A stretch of DNA of 35,916 bases from Microgenomates group bacterium RIFCSPHIGHO2_01_FULL_45_11 (GTDB taxonomy: Bacteria > Patescibacteriota > Microgenomatia > UBA1400 > 2-01-FULL-45-11), in contig MHDE01000007.1 in the NCBI GenBank assembly GCA_001803465.1, positions 7,445 to 43,360 on the forward strand. The letters run 5' to 3'. The notes below the pieces were generated by a model. It was not told the origin of the DNA, did no database searches, and was given only the letters and a program-made list of their open reading frames with translations. Positions 11,894 through 18,860 of this stretch are shown here, in pieces; position 1 is the stretch's first letter; every line of letters begins with the position of its first letter. A program made the translations under genes and the position numbers.

Positions 11894-12049
11894 ATCCCAC
11901 TATTGATCTGGCTTACCATCCAGGGAAGCGGGCGGACTGGGACGAACCCAGAGAACGAAGTTGTCCCGATATTACATCGGGGAAATGGGGTGGAACCATC
12001 CCGATATCAATTGGGGTCCCCATGGCTAGAAGTGGCCATGGGTTTTTTT
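11894..12049 (+). promoter_or_regulatory. Compact T-box riboswitch (Thr specifier), transcriptional type
   Basis: Antiterminator ATGGGG-TGGAACC(11991-11997)-ATCCCGAT/ATTGGGGT-CCCCAT overlaps a terminator. ACC at 11915-11917 sits in the loop of a short stem. Confidence 0.8.
12018..12049 (+). terminator. Intrinsic terminator of the T-box leader
   Basis: CCCATGGCTA-GAAG-TGGCCATGGG followed by T7. Confidence 0.85.
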
Positions 12050-12064
12050 AGTAAAAAGGACATT

Positions 12065-12394
12065 ATGAATGACCAATCGGCTGAAAAGACTGTTAATCAA
12101 AGTGTGGTTAAGGAAGAGAGGATGGGAGAGACGAAGACCGTGTACAACGCCTCGGGTGGGGAAGTGTTTTGGAAGAACTTCTTGGCTGGTTTTGGCCGAG
12201 CTTTAGGAAGTGTTTTCGTGTATTTGCTTTTTCTGGGATTAATCGTTTATCTATTCACCAATTACCTGTTTCCCCAGATTAAACCATGGCTTGATCAGTA
12301 CGCCAAAGCCATTGAGGTTTTGACTCAGCAAAAAGGCGGGCAGTCCGGTAATCAACAAGAATTACAACAAATGATGGAGAAATTATATCGATAG
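12065..12394 (+). CDS. Small single-pass membrane protein (109 aa)
   Basis: SD AAGGA before ATG 12065; FWKNFLAGFGRALG plus a TM segment. The longer call (11903) runs through the T-box. Confidence 0.7.
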   Translation: MNDQSAEKTVNQSVVKEERMGETKTVYNASGGEVFWKNFLAGFGRALGSVFVYLLFLGLIVYLFTNYLFPQIKPWLDQYAKAIEVLTQQKGGQSGNQQELQQMMEKLYR

Positions 12395-12462: not shown

Positions 12463-14232
12463 ATGAAGCTTGATAACCAAGAACAACTTGAGGCATTGCG
12501 GCATTCAACTGCTCATTTATTGGCGGCGGCGGTGATGGAGTTGTGGCCCAAGGCTAAACGGACGATTGGGCCGGCGATTGAGGACGGCTTTTATTACGAC
12601 TTTGATTTCGCCGGGTACAAGTCTCCCCCGGGTGAAGCTGACTTTCCTAAGATTGAGGCTAAGATGCGGGAGTTGGTCAAAGATTGGAAAGACTTTAAAA
12701 GGGAAGAATTAACGATATCAGAAGCAAAGGCCCGGTATCCTGGTAACTCTTTTAAGCATGAACTGATTGAGGAATTTTCCGAAGGCGGAAAGAAAAAATT
12801 GAGTTTTTACACCTCGGGGAACTATTCTGATCTCTGCAAGGGCGGACATATTTCCGAACCCAGCAAGAAACTCAAATATTTCAAATTGCTGTCTGTCGCC
12901 GGCGCCTACTGGCGAGGTGATGAGACGAAGCCGGTCTTAACCAGAATTTACGGCACAGCTTGGTTTAGCCAAAAAGAGTTGGATGAGTACATTCGGCGGC
13001 GGGAGGAAGCCAAGAAACGCGATCATCGGAAACTTGGTAAGGAATTGGGACTTTTCTTAATTAGCGAAGATGTGGGACCGGGGCTTATCTTGTGGCAACC
13101 GAAAGGTAATATCATCAAAGAAGAACTGGAGAATTGGGCGAAACAGGCTGAAAAGTCTTGGGGGTATCAGCGAGTAACGACGCCGAATATTACTAAAGCG
13201 GGGCTTTACTACACTTCCGGCCATTTGCCGTATTACCAAAAGGATATGTACCCGCCGATGAAGTTAGATGACGGCGAAGAATATTTTTTGAAACCGATGA
13301 ATTGTCCGCATCATCATCAGATTTATAAGGCAAAGCCACGAAGTTATCGAGAGCTGCCGCTAAGACTGGCTGAATTTGGCACCTGCTATCGCTACGAAAG
13401 TTCAGGCGAGCTGTTTGGACTAATGCGGGTTAGAGGCTTTACCCAAAACGACTCCCATATTTACTGTACTAAAGAACAAGCAGTGGACGAATTTGTGGCG
13501 GTGATGAAGCTTCATGAATACTATTACCGGACGCTTGGCATCAACGAATATCATTTGGAGTTGGCTCTCCGCGATCCTAAAGACAGTGGGAAGTATCATG
13601 GGGATGACAAAATGTGGGCATTGGCAGAGAAATTGATGCGTCAAGCTGCAAGCAAAGTGGACATTCCTATGGTGGAGTCAATAGGCAATGCGGCTTTTTA
13701 CGGTCCAAAAATCGATTTTATTATTCACTCGTCCATCGGCCGGGAGTTTGCCATTTCGACAAACCAGATTGATTTGTATATGGGACAACGATTTAAGCTC
13801 ACCTACACTGATAGAGACGGTTCAGAGAAAACGCCGGTCATTATTCACCGGGCTCCCTTGGGTTCTCACGAACGGTTCATTGGGTTTTTGATTGAGCATT
13901 TTGGTGGAGCCTTTCCGACTTGGCTCACCCCTGTTCAGGTAAAAGTGCTGCCGGTAACCGACCGTCAGTTAGCTTACGCTAAGTTGGTAACCAAGCAATT
14001 AGACGAGGCAAATGTCCGAGCGGAAGTCGACGAGGGCAACGAAACTCTGTCGGCAAAGATTCGCGATGCCCAACTAGAAAAGGTTGCTTATATGCTCATT
14101 GTCGGCGACAAAGAAGAAAAAGAAAAGACAGTTACCGAACGGAGGAGAAGCGGCAAGGATTTTGGGGCACAACCACTGAAAAAGTTTATAGAGAGTATTA
14201 GAAAAGAGATTGAGGAAAAGACAATCAATTAG
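12463..14232 (+). CDS. thrS: Threonine--tRNA ligase (no N-terminal TGS domain)
   Basis: LRHSTAHLLA, DLCKGGH, RDHRKLG, KPMNCPHH, FYGPKID and HRAPLGSHERF motifs. Confidence 0.98.
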   Translation: MKLDNQEQLEALRHSTAHLLAAAVMELWPKAKRTIGPAIEDGFYYDFDFAGYKSPPGEADFPKIEAKMRELVKDWKDFKREELTISEAKARYPGNSFKHELIEEFSEGGKKKLSFYTSGNYSDLCKGGHISEPSKKLKYFKLLSVAGAYWRGDETKPVLTRIYGTAWFSQKELDEYIRRREEAKKRDHRKLGKELGLFLISEDVGPGLILWQPKGNIIKEELENWAKQAEKSWGYQRVTTPNITKAGLYYTSGHLPYYQKDMYPPMKLDDGEEYFLKPMNCPHHHQIYKAKPRSYRELPLRLAEFGTCYRYESSGELFGLMRVRGFTQNDSHIYCTKEQAVDEFVAVMKLHEYYYRTLGINEYHLELALRDPKDSGKYHGDDKMWALAEKLMRQAASKVDIPMVESIGNAAFYGPKIDFIIHSSIGREFAISTNQIDLYMGQRFKLTYTDRDGSEKTPVIIHRAPLGSHERFIGFLIEHFGGAFPTWLTPVQVKVLPVTDRQLAYAKLVTKQLDEANVRAEVDEGNETLSAKIRDAQLEKVAYMLIVGDKEEKEKTVTERRRSGKDFGAQPLKKFIESIRKEIEEKTIN

Positions 14233-14308
14233 AAATTTATAAATGTATCCTTGATGGCTAATTGCGCAAATAAGGATCGTATAGTACAATTTACCCTGGA
14301 GGAGTACC

Positions 14309-14821
14309 ATTAGTCGCCCGTTTTATCAATTAAACCAGCACATTAAAGCGGAAACGCTGCGAGTAGTGGACGAAGAGGCGGGCCAAATTGGAGTCATGTC
14401 CAAAATGGAAGCGTTGAATCTGGCCCACGAAAAAGAGGCAGACTTAATTTTAGTGGCCCCGAACGCCAATCCACCAGTCGCCAAAATCATCATCTTTGCC
14501 AAGTTTAAGTACCAACAGCAGCAGAAAGAAGCCAGCGGCAGGAAAAAGGCCAAAGCGGTGGACATTAAAGAAATTCGGTTCACGCCATTTATTGCCGAAG
14601 GTGATTATAATCAGCGAATTAAACGGGTACGACAATTTTTAGAGGATGGCGACAAAGTGAGACTGACGGTAAAATTTGTCGGCCGGCAAATTACGAGGAA
14701 AGACTTTGGAGATAAGTTGTTAAATAAGGCTGTAAGCGAATTGTCGGATATAGCCACGGTGGAATTTCCGCACCGGTTGATGGGTAAACTATTGTATACC
14801 CAGTTACAGAGAAAGAAGTAG
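14309..14821 (+). CDS. infC: Translation initiation factor IF-3 with ATT start
   Basis: GGAGGAG SD, then an in-frame ATT at 14309. ADLILVAPNANPPVAKI and FLEDGDKV motifs. Confidence 0.95.
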   Translation: MSRPFYQLNQHIKAETLRVVDEEAGQIGVMSKMEALNLAHEKEADLILVAPNANPPVAKIIIFAKFKYQQQQKEASGRKKAKAVDIKEIRFTPFIAEGDYNQRIKRVRQFLEDGDKVRLTVKFVGRQITRKDFGDKLLNKAVSELSDIATVEFPHRLMGKLLYTQLQRKK

Positions 14822-14862
14822 AACATAGAGCTGAGAGCATGAAGAGTGAGTGAAGGAAACGT

Positions 14863-15057
14863 ATGCCGAAGGTTAAGACCAGAAAAATTGTGGCCAAGCG
14901 GTTTAAAATTACCAAGACCGGTAAAATTTTACGCCGGGCTCAGAATATGCGCCATTTGCGGCGGAGAAAGTCTAAGCGGCAAATTCGCGCTTACCGGGTG
15001 CCGAAGCAAGTAACGGGAAAAATGGCCAAAAAAATACGAACGATGTTGGGAAGGTAG
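14863..15057 (+). CDS. rpmI: 50S ribosomal protein L35
   Basis: MPKVKTRKIVAKRFKITKTGK; synteny with infC and rplT. Confidence 0.95.
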   Translation: MPKVKTRKIVAKRFKITKTGKILRRAQNMRHLRRRKSKRQIRAYRVPKQVTGKMAKKIRTMLGR

Positions 15058-15296
15058 TGAGCAATAAACGCCGTTTTAACCGTTTGTTTAACCAAACTGC
15101 CAGAGCTTTGAAAGCAGTCAGGGCGGCACAGGTTTTTGGCAGATTGAATCGGTTGATGCCTTATACCTTACCTGTCGATAATTTTTTTCGAAGGCATATT
15201 AATAAAATTAGACAAAAAGATTGGTTGAAAAGGAGTAAACCATGGCCAGAGTCAAAACCGGGCCCAGCCGGAGGCGACACCATAAAAAAGTCTTAG
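15057..15296 (+). CDS. Possible small basic protein between rpmI and rplT
   Basis: The GTG start overlaps the rpmI stop (TAGTG). Arg/Lys-rich. The last 55 nt overlap rplT. Confidence 0.35.
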
Positions 15297-15601
15297 CTAG
15301 AACGGCCGGCATGCGCATGTCGAAGGGCCGGCTGTATAAGGTAAGTCGGGAGGCAGACCTTCACGCTGGGCAGTATGCCTATATTGGTAGAAGACTGAGA
15401 AAACGCGATATGAGGAGGTTATGGATACTTAGAATTAATGCGGCTCTCAAAAGCTATAAGTTAGAGATAACCTATTCTCGTCTTATCCCGCTACTAAAAA
15501 AAGCAAAGATAGAACTGGACAGAAAAATTTTGGCAGAGTTGGCGGTAACTGATCCGGATACTTTCAAGGCTGTGGTTGACAAAGCAAAGGGCTCTCAATA
15601 A
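15242..15601 (+). CDS. rplT: 50S ribosomal protein L20
   Basis: [23 protein letters not shown] and [11 protein letters not shown] motifs. SD AAGGAG. Confidence 0.97.
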
Positions 15602-15602
15602 A

Positions 15603-15659
15603 ATGCAAGTAATGACTAGTTTAATCGCCTTCACCGCTTTCTTTTTTAGCCTCGGCTAA
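15603..15659 (+). CDS. Phe-rich leader peptide (PheM-like), MQVMTSLIAFTAFFFSLG
   Basis: Four Phe codons, three of them consecutive (15639-15647), between rplT and pheS. Alternative start at 15612. Confidence 0.8.
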   Translation: MQVMTSLIAFTAFFFSLG

Positions 15660-15711
15660 AGGGGAGCGGTCAGGTGGCGTTTTTGACAAGCTCCCCAAGG
15701 GGGCTTTTTTT
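15633..15711 (+). promoter_or_regulatory. Ribosome-mediated transcription attenuator of pheST
   Basis: 1:2 ACCGCTTTCTTT/AAAGGGGAGCGGT; 2:3 GGGGAGC/GCTCCCC; 3:4 terminator AAGCTCCC-CAA-GGGGGCTT plus T run. Confidence 0.8.
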
Positions 15712-15769
15712 ATTGGAAAAATTACTCACAATTGCCGCCAGCTTAAAACTTAAGTAGACTAGAAGAACG

Positions 15770-16792
15770 ATGCAAGAACAAATAAACAATCTTAAAAACG
15801 AAGCCATTGCGCTTATTACCCAGGCAGGTTCAGCCAACGAGCTCGAGGAATTGCGCCGGACGTATCTCGGGCGAAAAGGCAAAATTAATGAATTTGTCAA
15901 ACTCATGGCCGAAGCAACGGGTACAGAGCGGGCACAACTCGGCAAGTCAATTAACGAAACCAAGCAGGTTATCGTTCAAGCACTTACTGACCAGGCAGAA
16001 AATTACCGCCAGCAAACAGCGTGGCTGGATGTGACTCAGCCAGGGAAATTGCCACCGATGGGGCATTTGCATCCGATAACCCAAGCGATTGAGGAAATCA
16101 CCAGGATTTTTGAAGGGATTGGCTTTACGCGTGTCAGATACCCGGAAATTGATTACGACTGGTATGTCTTTACCGCGCTTAATATGCCGCCCAAGCACCC
16201 GGCGCGGGATGAATGGGAAACGTTCTTCATTGACGCCTCTTCCCATCCTAGTAAAGGCGAGTTGGTATTAACGACGCATACCAGTAACGGCCAAGTGCGA
16301 GAAATGGAACGGGTTAAGATACCTCCGATTAGAATGCTTAATATTGGTAAATGCTATAGGCGGCAACAGGATGTGACCCACACGGCTATGTTTCACCAAT
16401 TTGAAGGTTTGGTGATCGATTCGGGAATCACTATCCAACATTTGAAAGGGACGCTCAACTATTTCGCCAGGAAGTTTTACGGACCGCAAGCTAAATCTCG
16501 AATTAGGCCGTTTATGTTTAAGTTTACTGAACCAAGTTTTGAAGTTGATTTCTCCTGTGTCCACTGCAACGGTGAAGGCTGCAGATTTTGCAAGTCCGGT
16601 TGGCACGAAGTCGGTGGAGCCGGAATGGTACACCCTAATGTTTTGAAAGCGGGCGGGATTGACCCGGAAAAATATACAGGCTTTGCCTTTGGTTGGGGGG
16701 TGGAGCGGGTTTATACCCTAAAGCCAGGATTACACCTTGATGATATTAGACCTTTATATAGCACCAATTTGGAATTCCTTGAACAATTTTAA
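15770..16792 (+). CDS. pheS: Phenylalanine--tRNA ligase alpha subunit
   Basis: GHLHPI, HPARD, FHQFEGL, FTEPSFEVD and GFAFGWGVER motifs. Confidence 0.98.
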   Translation: MQEQINNLKNEAIALITQAGSANELEELRRTYLGRKGKINEFVKLMAEATGTERAQLGKSINETKQVIVQALTDQAENYRQQTAWLDVTQPGKLPPMGHLHPITQAIEEITRIFEGIGFTRVRYPEIDYDWYVFTALNMPPKHPARDEWETFFIDASSHPSKGELVLTTHTSNGQVREMERVKIPPIRMLNIGKCYRRQQDVTHTAMFHQFEGLVIDSGITIQHLKGTLNYFARKFYGPQAKSRIRPFMFKFTEPSFEVDFSCVHCNGEGCRFCKSGWHEVGGAGMVHPNVLKAGGIDPEKYTGFAFGWGVERVYTLKPGLHLDDIRPLYSTNLEFLEQF

Positions 16793-16805: not shown

Positions 16806-18860
16806 ATGAACATTTTAATACCCCACCGTTGGTTGTTGGAACACTTGAAGACCTCCGTTTTGCCCCAAAAAATCCAGGAGTATTTATCTTTGTGCGGGCC
16901 GAGTGTGGAACGGTTGAGTAAGGTTGACGGTGATTGGATCTATGACATTGAGGTAACCACTAATCGGGTAGACATGATGAGTGTGATCGGTATTGCCCGA
17001 GAGGCGGCGGCGATTTTGCCAGAGTTTGGTGTCAAAGCTGAACTGGTTCCGCTGACTTTGCCACCGATAGCTAGTTACAAATCACTGGACATAAAAATCA
17101 TCAATAATCCTCAACTGTGTCAGCGGATTTTGGCAATCAAACTAGGAGGGGTAAAAATTGGACCGTCGCCAGAATGGCTACAAAAACGTCTCATCCAAGT
17201 GGGACAACGGCCACTCAACAACGTCATCGACATTACTAACTACGTGATGTGGGAAGTGGGGCATCCAGTGCACGTGTTTGATTATGACCGGTTGACTAAA
17301 AAAACGATTGCCGTTCGTGAAGCTAAAAAGGGTGAACGACTGAAAACCTTGGATGATAAAGTTCACCGACTTGTCGGTGGGGAAGTAGTGTTTGATGACG
17401 GTACAGGAACAATCATTGATTTGCCGGGAATTATGGGGACGGCCAACACGGTGGTGACTGATAAAACAACCAATATCCTACTGTGGATTGAATCGATTGA
17501 CCCGGTTAAGATTCGACAAGCGTCCATGACACTTGCGATTCGGTCACAAGCAGCGGTACTCAATGAAAAACAGGTAGATCCGGAGTTGGGACTGATGGCG
17601 GTGTTACGAGTTGTCGAACTGTGCCAAAAGCTAACCCAAGCCAAGGTGGCTAGTAAACTGGTGGATATTTACCCGGTCAAACCAGTTATTAAGCCAATTA
17701 CCTTAACCGATGAACGATTGACCACGTATTTAGGCCTTCGAGTTGAACCAGAGAGAGTAAAAGGGATTTTGGAAAGGTTGGGGTGCCAAATTCAAGTTAA
17801 AAATGAAAATTTAAAAGTTAAAAATAATAAAAAAGGCGGGGATGAGGAAACTATCAATTATGAGGTGGTGCCGCCGACCTGGAGGGCAAGAGACCTAACC
17901 ATTCCTGAAGATCTGATTGAGGAAGTGGCCAGAATTTACGGCTATCATAATTTCCCCAGTTCCGTCATGGCAACAACGATTCCAGATGCGCCGTCGGAAG
18001 AAAACTTTCGCTTGGAGTACCAAATAAAACAGTGGCTAACGGGCTGGGGATTTACTGAAATCTATACCTATTCCATGGTAGCCAAGGATTTGGTTTTGGC
18101 GTCAGGATATCCTCTGGCCTCACACTTAAAAATCAAGAACCCGTTGTCCGACGAGTGGGTTTATATGCGTCGGTCTTTGGTACCGTCGATCATGGCCGTC
18201 GTTGAAAGTAACCAGCGTGATATGATTCGGGTCTTTGAAATGCAAAATGTTTTTCACCCGGCAGGAAAACGGTCCGAACTACCGAATGAGGAATTACAAT
18301 TAGTGGTAGCGACTACGACGAGTTATCAGGAGTTGAAGGGTGTGGTTGATGGGTTGATGACTAAGTTGTTTTTGGCTAATGAACTTTACGTAGTGCCTAC
18401 TAACGTTGATCAGGATGGTTTTGGCGTGGGGCAGACCGGAGAGATAGTGGTCGGGAAAAAACGGCTAGGAGTAATGGGACAATTGAAGGCAAAGAAAATG
18501 TGGGTGGCGAAAATTTTGATGAGGGAGTTAATGGCTTTGGCCAGAACGCACCCCCGGTATATTCCGATTAAAACCACGCCACCGATTAGGGAAGACTTGA
18601 CGTTTCAGGTTCCAGATAAAACCTACCTTGGTAACTTGCTCCTTACTGTTGCTAAGACGAGTAAACTGGTGGAGACAGCGATTATTTCTAAGCGTTATAA
18701 ACCACCAACGGCAACCGATTCTACCAATATTACTTTGACTCTGACTTACCGTGACCCCAAGAAATCGCTGACTGATAAAGAACTAATGCCGGTTCGGAAA
18801 AAGATTGCGACCTCCTTAGCGCAACTGTATTCAGCTCAACTGGTTGGTTTACTGGAGTAA
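16806..18860 (+). CDS. pheT: Phenylalanine--tRNA ligase beta subunit (short form)
   Basis: EVTTNRVD, NNVIDITNYVM, DLIEEVARIYGY and NPLS motifs. Confidence 0.96.
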   Translation: MNILIPHRWLLEHLKTSVLPQKIQEYLSLCGPSVERLSKVDGDWIYDIEVTTNRVDMMSVIGIAREAAAILPEFGVKAELVPLTLPPIASYKSLDIKIINNPQLCQRILAIKLGGVKIGPSPEWLQKRLIQVGQRPLNNVIDITNYVMWEVGHPVHVFDYDRLTKKTIAVREAKKGERLKTLDDKVHRLVGGEVVFDDGTGTIIDLPGIMGTANTVVTDKTTNILLWIESIDPVKIRQASMTLAIRSQAAVLNEKQVDPELGLMAVLRVVELCQKLTQAKVASKLVDIYPVKPVIKPITLTDERLTTYLGLRVEPERVKGILERLGCQIQVKNENLKVKNNKKGGDEETINYEVVPPTWRARDLTIPEDLIEEVARIYGYHNFPSSVMATTIPDAPSEENFRLEYQIKQWLTGWGFTEIYTYSMVAKDLVLASGYPLASHLKIKNPLSDEWVYMRRSLVPSIMAVVESNQRDMIRVFEMQNVFHPAGKRSELPNEELQLVVATTTSYQELKGVVDGLMTKLFLANELYVVPTNVDQDGFGVGQTGEIVVGKKRLGVMGQLKAKKMWVAKILMRELMALARTHPRYIPIKTTPPIREDLTFQVPDKTYLGNLLLTVAKTSKLVETAIISKRYKPPTATDSTNITLTLTYRDPKKSLTDKELMPVRKKIATSLAQLYSAQLVGLLE

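Follow-up and report, generated by a model that had tools for sequence, protein, structure and literature searches.

The window analysed here, a stretch of 35,916 nt from a genome of 1.08 Mb in 38 contigs, carries the gene cluster thrS-infC-rpmI-rplT-leader-pheS-pheT, all of it on the forward strand. The genome is taken to be patescibacterial (Candidate Phyla Radiation), probably of the Microgenomates group; its pheS is nearest, among named records, to those of Candidatus Woesebacteria and Candidatus Paceibacterota, as well as to metagenome-assembled genomes titled 'uncultured Pseudomonadales'. By open reading frame calls and Pfam matches the genes are thrS (12463-14232), infC (14366-14821), rpmI (14863-15057), rplT for ribosomal protein L20 (15242-15601, with its TAA stop at 15599-15601; Ribosomal_L20, E 2.8e-35), pheS (15770-16792; tRNA-synt_2d, E 2.3e-81) and pheT (16806-18860; B3_4, B5, tRNA_synthFbeta and FDX-ACB domains). 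The spacer between rplT and pheS measures 168 nt, and it is there that the leader lies. A preliminary description of this DNA had cited Escherichia coli for the order thrS-infC-rpmI-rplT-pheM-pheST with the same logic, and in strain K-12 the genes do stand in the order of the window, with pheM between rplT and pheS. A terminator scan of the window found no terminator between rplT and the leader, so that a terminator belonging to rplT and placed ahead of the leader was ruled out. Elsewhere in the cluster, the spacer between rpmI and rplT (15058-15241) is unusually long at 184 nt and might be an L20-binding operator; it holds a weak promoter-like site at 15153-15182, and neither of the Rfam matches that overlap it, an 18.7-bit one to a lncRNA (E 8.8) and a 9.8-bit one to an sRNA (E 8.2), reaches E <= 1.

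The leader contains a short open reading frame (sORF) on the forward strand that can be read in two lengths. The long form, MQVMTSLIAFTAFFFSLG, occupies 15603-15659 and has 18 codons, its ATG (15603-15605) lying 1 nt beyond the rplT stop and its TAA at 15657-15659; the short form, MTSLIAFTAFFFSLG, starts at a second in-frame ATG and comprises 15 codons (15612-15659). Both contain the putative regulatory Phe codons TTC TTT TTT at 15639-15647 (F13-F15 of the long form) and a further Phe codon, TTC, at 15630-15632, giving the leader only 4 Phe in 18 codons, a small number that counts against attenuation. A sigma-70-like promoter, TTGACA-17-TAAAAT (15576-15604, forward strand; TTGACA at 15576-15581, TAAAAT at 15599-15604), with 11 of 12 consensus matches, overlaps the rplT stop, and 7 nt separate the end of its -10 box from the ATG at 15612. 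From the promoter spacing, transcription is predicted to start at about 15611-15612, and because this is at or next to the second ATG, transcripts from the internal promoter would omit the first one. The second ATG (15612) is thus the probable functional start, used on leaderless transcripts made from the internal promoter, while the position of the first ATG (15603) fits coupled re-initiation on read-through transcripts.

Whereas the window has both start arrangements, a promoter-spaced ATG and an rplT-adjacent ATG in one shared frame, other related leaders have an ATG 0-6 nt after the rplT stop, consistent with re-initiation. Among the related leaders we looked for ATGs, in whatever frame, that follow by 5-9 nt a promoter matching the consensus at 9 or more of 12 positions, the chance expectation of such a promoter being about 0.008 per leader. 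The search returned 17 promoter-spaced ATGs, and every one of the 17 corresponding open reading frames crosses the pyrimidine tract so as to read at least three Phe codons. The C bases of the tract in the relatives are distributed 2/6/33 over codon positions 1, 2 and 3, which is the pattern of synonymous TTC/TTT choice, and many of the relatives' leader peptides also open with MT.

Downstream of the start codons, the leader can adopt three competing pairings, all on the forward strand. Segment 1 (15634-15650), which contains the three consecutive Phe codons, pairs with segment 2 (GCUAAAGGGGAGCGG; 15655-15669), which includes the stop codon and can take either segment 1 or segment 3 as its partner. 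The 1:2 hairpin (15634-15642/15661-15669 together with 15645-15650/15655-15660) has a predicted energy of -19.5 kcal/mol and a z score of -4.4, with none of 200 dinucleotide shuffles as good, and a second cut of the sequence gives z -3.05. The predicted 2:3 antiterminator (15661-15696) is formed by GGGGAGC at 15661-15667 with GCUCCCC at 15690-15696, plus an inner helix of 15669-15674 with 15682-15687; it folds at -21.0 kcal/mol (z -4.6), again with 0 of 200 shuffles as good. The 3:4 hairpin (15688-15711) is a predicted intrinsic terminator with an 8-bp stem (15688-15695/15699-15706), a 3-nt loop and a run of seven T at 15705-15711; its fold of -11.3 kcal/mol has a z score of -1.9 and is equalled by 9 of 200 shuffles, and it was also picked up independently by the terminator scan, 58 nt ahead of the pheS ATG. 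The z score for the fold of the entire 136-nt region is -3.7. These results bear out the observation made in the preliminary description, which had reported an open reading frame with four Phe codons beginning 1 nt after the rplT stop, three alternative pairings with a T-run terminator, and a span of 15603-15711, which corresponds exactly to the distance from the sORF start to the end of the T-run. That the arrangement exceeds chance is shown mainly by its conservation in relatives, described below, and not by this single sequence.

A ribosome footprint reaches about 12-15 nt 3' of the A-site codon. In the window the G-rich core of segment 2 begins at a distance of 16 nt from the last Phe codon and of 4 nt from the stop codon, each counted from the first base of the codon. 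Counted in the same way over the 30 compact leaders, the onset of segment 2 trails the last Phe codon by 10-20 nt (median 16), and the end of the segment trails the stop codon by 8-18 nt (median 12, the window also 12). A second form is represented by 15 leaders whose sORF reads through segment 2. Since the spacing matches the footprint, a ribosome stalled at the Phe codons would leave segment 2 free and one positioned at the stop would cover it, as the preliminary description had envisaged for the stalled ribosome and as the spacing in the window and in the 30 compact leaders allows.

It is very probable, judging from these features and from the comparative evidence, that the element is a leader-peptide attenuator of transcription, mediated by the ribosome, through which the supply of charged tRNA-Phe determines the expression of pheS-pheT. 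Our working model is that RNA polymerase enters either from the infC-rpmI-rplT transcript or from the promoter overlapping the rplT stop and transcribes the leader, whose 15 or 18 codons include the Phe-Phe-Phe run. When Phe-tRNA is plentiful, the ribosome would reach the stop codon at 15657 with its footprint over segment 2 (15661-15669); with segment 2 covered, segment 3 would pair with segment 4 and we infer that transcription would end at the T-run (15705-15711). Under a shortage of Phe-tRNA, the ribosome would stall on 15639-15647 and occupy segment 1, the free segment 2 would pair with segment 3 to form the antiterminator, and the polymerase would continue into pheST. If no ribosome were present, the 1:2 hairpin would form and the terminator would act.

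The distribution of such leaders was investigated at pheS, which was located in 60 of 61 genomes of the same order and which has rplT just upstream in 27 of the first 30 loci. A detector that required a Phe cluster near the end of a short open reading frame and a terminator stem 25-39 nt after the stop flagged 22 of the 60 pheS loci; one of these (L009) was false, the cluster being the C-terminus of rplT, which leaves 21 of 60. The preliminary description had named the lack of a Phe-rich sORF in relatives as its own refuting test, and such sORFs are present at these 21 loci and at more when searched by a covariance model, R1, built from 20 of the detected leaders. R1 finds exactly one site in the window's own genome and, at E <= 0.01, matches 59 of the 151 genomes sampled from the order, about 60% being without a match. 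All of the best 30 R1 loci have a Phe-run sORF and 27 of them have pheS downstream in the locus, nine of these pheS-linked leaders coming from genomes outside the training set. Across relatives, the leader peptides keep only the Phe run, after which Thr often follows; their length ranges from 12 to 29 residues and the rest varies freely. The 12 closest-matching loci from a contig scan (L063-L074) had no Phe leader, one of them (L072) giving a weak 34-bit R1 match.

Beyond the order, R1 matched 17 of 143 genomes from other orders of the class at E <= 0.001 and none of 143 genomes from other classes of the phylum. The Phe detector and R1 together found no leader, and only one weak match, at 80 pheS loci from other lineages including gamma-proteobacteria. 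The gamma-proteobacteria are expected to have pheM, yet the detector and R1 were silent there, which indicates that both tools are blind to distant leaders; since E. coli pheM is itself poorly recognized by R1 (21.6 bits, where the relatives reach 42 bits or more), the silence of R1 elsewhere bounds the sequence family and not the mechanism.

Variations on the arrangement were also observed at pheS. At five loci (L010, L013, L177, L202 and L204) a separate leader is lacking, the rplT stop borders directly on segment 2 and the C-terminus of L20 (e.g. ..TFKFVFTKAS before the stop) stands in for the leader. At L017 a masked stretch separates rplT from the peptide MTTARSLASFLFNLH, which is read in the rplT frame. 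Several loci (L007, L027, L035, L047 and others) have either a pheS-containing frame of about 600 aa or an extra open reading frame of 250-300 aa between the leader and the pheS core.

The arms of the antiterminator vary by lineage yet remain complementary: GGGGAGC/GCUCCC, GUGGGU/ACCCAC, GGAGGG/CCCUCC, GCGGGG/CCCGC, GCGAGG/CCUCGC and GGGAUUG/CAAUCCC. In an alignment-free test, the 85 nt upstream of each terminator were paired with its 5' arm and compared with shuffles. The pairing beat at least 95% of the shuffles for 46 of 49 leaders, while only 13 of 127 ordinary terminators of the window's genome did so (Mann-Whitney p 9e-23, a value that overstates significance as related genomes are non-independent, with shuffles that were composition-preserving, not strictly dinucleotide-preserving). 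In a swap test the upstream region favoured its own arm over arms with a different core (mean z -1.29 vs +0.20), and the own arm ranked among the best 10% for 19 of 24 core types. We conclude that the predicted antiterminator covaries with its own terminator arm. Compensatory stem changes, which the preliminary description had suggested looking for, are supported by the swap test (19/24) and by the shuffle comparison (46/49 leaders), and weakly by counting in an alignment: in a model-fitted alignment based on the scaffold model R2 (see below) 55.6% of cells were paired vs 48.1% in shuffles, a weak count in which slid registers did as well or better. The G-run and C-run arms slip in register, and RNAalifold predicted no pairs on a MAFFT alignment because the arms were misaligned there. 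The pairing of the Phe-codon segment with segment 2, also part of the preliminary description, is strong in the window but modest across the family, reaching the 5% level in 7 of 46 leaders in a duplex test, with a mean z of about -1.2 for the 1:2 folds of 20 leaders, 6 of which have z <= -2.

Three other explanations of the locus have to be weighed against attenuation. The element might be an RNA switch that is independent of translation, in which the pyrimidine tract, GGGGAG and CUCCCC are read by a protein, by tRNA in the manner of a T-box or by a small molecule, the open reading frame being incidental. The pyrimidine tract would indeed pair with segment 2 whatever the reading frame, and T-box-like leaders do occur in the same genome, one of them before thrS in the window (24-31 bits against a threshold of 93). 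However, an Rfam scan of 14200-15900 at E <= 10 gave no match to a T-box (RF00230) or other riboswitch at the leader, the genome's only T-box-like matches lying elsewhere, and the frame is constrained, all 17 promoter-defined ATGs being in the Phe frame and 33 of 41 C bases of the tract at the third position; the position of the stop codon relative to segment 2 is conserved, and the repeated codon changes with the downstream gene, being Thr, Leu, Cys, His or Trp where other genes follow. We consider an RNA switch of this kind very unlikely.

The 3:4 hairpin might also be a plain intrinsic terminator that ends the infC-rpmI-rplT operon, with the sORF and the complementary segment arising by chance from a T-rich spacer. 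There is no other terminator after rplT in the window, the hairpin alone is unremarkable (z -1.9), and several relatives (e.g. L009, L029, L063 and L066) have just such a bare terminator after rplT with no Phe sORF. Against this, when the detector was rerun for each amino acid in turn it found Phe clusters at 19 of 60 loci, clusters of each other residue at 0-2 of 60 and Phe clusters on the antisense strand at none of 60; the antiterminator stands above shuffles far more often in the leaders than at ordinary terminators (46/49 vs 13/127); and neither the synonymous TTY pattern nor a promoter-defined frame is expected of a bare terminator, so that chance juxtaposition appears extremely improbable. 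Least probable of all, in our assessment, is that the sORF encodes a small hydrophobic peptide with a function of its own, such as a membrane peptide, and that the terminator merely ends its transcript. The sORF product is hydrophobic and small proteins frequently go unannotated, but the relatives keep only the Phe run, in peptides of 12-29 residues whose remaining sequence is free, and the element is upstream of pheS in 27 of the best 30 loci. Ribosome-coupled attenuation, the reading put forward in the preliminary description, is by contrast supported by the Phe sORFs of the relatives, by the covarying antiterminator and by the geometry.

The same scaffold is also found ahead of other genes. 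At E <= 0.002 the model R2, which describes the antiterminator-terminator scaffold only, has matches in 97 of the 151 genomes sampled from the order. We examined 20 high-scoring R2 sites, none of them among the collected pheS leaders, although three proved to precede pheS. Runs of Thr lie before ThrRS (L198, L208), a leader with LKLLLSL before LeuRS (L200), a Cys-rich leader before a small open reading frame and then CysRS (L209), His-containing leaders before HisRS (L211, L216), a WW leader before a class Ib (Trp/Tyr) synthetase (L213) and an FF leader before PheRS alpha (L205), so that in the sites that combine a separate leader with a synthetase the repeated residue matches the synthetase in 8 of 8 cases. 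Elsewhere, a WW leader precedes a TrpB-like PALP enzyme (L197), Cys-rich leaders precede a small open reading frame and then other genes (L201, L210), a Leu/Ile-rich leader precedes a 148-aa open reading frame of unknown kind (L207) and a Phe leader a 346-aa open reading frame of unknown kind (L206). Two sites before pheS have no separate leader, the L20 C-terminus ending at segment 2 (L202, L204), and three have no leader, being ordinary terminators or a metK riboswitch (L199, L214, L215). Among the class-level R1 hits, Phe or aromatic leaders also stand before an Asp/Glu racemase and a class Ib synthetase. The Thr-, Leu-, Cys-, His- and Trp-run leaders suggest a leader-peptide synthetase regulon that would extend across the order. 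In the window's own genome R2 finds an attenuator on contig 25 and the terminator of the metK riboswitch, and a scan of that genome for amino-acid-run sORFs before terminators was noisy and yielded no further synthetase leader.

The closest known counterpart is pheM of E. coli (RF01859, Phe_leader). The two share the gene order thrS-infC-rpmI-rplT-leader-pheS-pheT, a short open reading frame with a Phe run (5 Phe in 14 residues in the E. coli peptide), alternating pyrimidine-rich and purine-rich segments that end in a GC-rich hairpin with a U-run, and a logic by which low Phe-tRNA would lead to read-through. There is nonetheless no demonstrable homology: against RF01859 the window scores 23.7 bits (E 0.39, threshold 55), whereas pheM scores 75 bits, and R1 separates E. 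coli from the relatives as described above. That the peptide resembles PheM in its Phe run only, as the preliminary description had it, is in keeping with these scores. We conclude that the element would work like pheM and is not a member of the RF01859 family. A further candidate identity, the Rfam family PyrG_leader, was dismissed, its match of 28 bits lying below the threshold of 65. The layouts differ as well. E. coli has a separate rplT terminator, which the window lacks, and has a gap of 122 nt before pheM and 283 nt between pheM and pheS, whereas the leader of the window starts 1 nt after the rplT stop; in the window, moreover, the promoter overlaps the rplT stop, the stop codon of the leader abuts segment 2 and the start is probably leaderless. 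Because Phe codons are rich in U and C, segments 2, 3 and 4 must be purine-rich, pyrimidine-rich and purine-rich, respectively, and the resemblance to pheM would be forced by the mechanism. The preliminary description had left the choice between an ancient and a convergent origin open; in view of the differences from E. coli and the restriction of R1 matches to one class, we favour a convergent origin.

In E. coli, pheL-pheA belongs to the same Rfam family as pheM, and the relatives of the window likewise have Phe or aromatic leaders before prephenate dehydratase (L170) and before DAHP synthase with prephenate dehydratase (L187), both being of the form whose sORF reads through segment 2. These leaders would place both pheA-type and pheS-type targets under control, as in gamma-proteobacteria. 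Unlike E. coli, the window's own genome yielded no second Phe leader: R1 has one match there, and the second attenuator found by R2 is Leu/Ile-rich. The T-boxes of Firmicutes (RF00230) likewise induce synthetase genes singly, in response to the uncharged cognate tRNA and through a choice between terminator and antiterminator, but a T-box reads the uncharged tRNA directly, whereas the element of the window would do so via a translating ribosome. Leader-peptide attenuation of synthetase genes has also been described outside the Proteobacteria: known cases are pheST in gamma-proteobacteria together with trpS and leuS in Streptomyces (PMC1262725) and a His leader ahead of hisS paralogues in bacilli (PMC2965389). 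The cases outside the Proteobacteria are isolated ones, whereas here a single order uses one shared scaffold for targets that include at least Phe, Thr, Leu, Cys, His and Trp. Leaderless polycysteine short open reading frames are reported to be attenuators in mycobacteria (bioRxiv 10.1101/834739); there, too, the transcript opens with the sensing frame and lacks a Shine-Dalgarno leader, but they differ in phylum and amino acid, and the element of the window combines an intrinsic terminator with a defined antiterminator and has a leaderless start that is predicted from promoter spacing only.

Taking these comparisons together, we think it rather more probable than otherwise that the pheS leader belongs to a modular family of attenuators, often leaderless, in one class of Patescibacteria (Candidate Phyla Radiation, CPR) that would do the job of the T-box of Firmicutes, a single scaffold with interchangeable Phe, Thr, Leu, Cys, His, Trp or Ile-Leu codon runs controlling the cognate synthetases and the few remaining biosynthetic genes. 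If so, this family arose independently of the proteobacterial leaders, and transcription and translation are tightly coupled in these ultra-small cells. Such an attenuator at pheST implies a ribosome close behind RNA polymerase; in Bacillus, a T-box user, transcription reportedly outruns translation. CPR bacteria are mostly unable to make amino acids, and a conserved pheST attenuator with sister elements at other synthetase genes would offer a concrete and testable answer to how they sense the amino-acid supply. Cis-regulation in this group appears to be little charted: a literature search combining leader peptides or attenuation with Patescibacteria or Candidate Phyla Radiation found no leader-peptide attenuator, and in one paper checked from that literature the term 'leader peptide' refers to bacteriocin precursors. 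A Russian-language survey by Lopatovskaya and co-workers, of about 2010, deals with synthetase-operon attenuation across bacteria and may bear on novelty. At about 100 nt the leader is also a compact natural part and would constitute a new RNA family for annotation libraries.

A number of further observations concern the genes behind these leaders. The attenuator on contig 25 of the window's own genome (3050-3670; L192) is a candidate second leader-peptide attenuator, with a Leu/Ile-rich sORF, MHLNCIQNQLINLLIT, a perfect TTGACA-17-TATAAT promoter and the segments AACCUCC, AAGGAGGUU, AACCUCC and GGAGGUU followed by a run of seven T; downstream lies a 146-aa open reading frame with no Pfam family, an arrangement similar to the Leu/Ile leader and 148-aa open reading frame of L207. 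In another genome (G040; L170:380-1610) a stretch of 1.2 kb holds three tandem attenuators, whose leaders are Ile-rich, YWVLFI and FYFFFFF; the leaders share a C-terminal ..NGLGG.. encoded by segment 2, and each is followed by a small open reading frame, the last of these then by prephenate dehydratase. Homologous open reading frames of about 350 aa with no Pfam family lie right behind Phe leaders in L186:429-1484 and L206:253-1290 and are candidates for a Phe-related function. After the Cys-rich leaders of L201, L209 and L210 there is a conserved open reading frame of about 70 aa (MN.IT.FYLNKA.Y...), also with no Pfam family, which in L209 is ahead of cysS.

Within the window itself, a truncated T-box-like leader (11894-12049, forward strand; 24.3 bits against a threshold of 93, E 0.0033) precedes a 109-aa open reading frame (12065-12394) and thrS. 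It has a T-box motif, AAAUGGGGUGGAACC, a terminator with a run of seven T at 12019-12049 and a miniature stem I (CUGG-CUUACCAU-CCAG) whose loop contains ACC, a Thr codon, followed by A. On this evidence one cluster may combine tRNA sensing at thrS with ribosome sensing at pheS; two relatives (G150 and G034) have Thr-run leader peptides before thrS instead.
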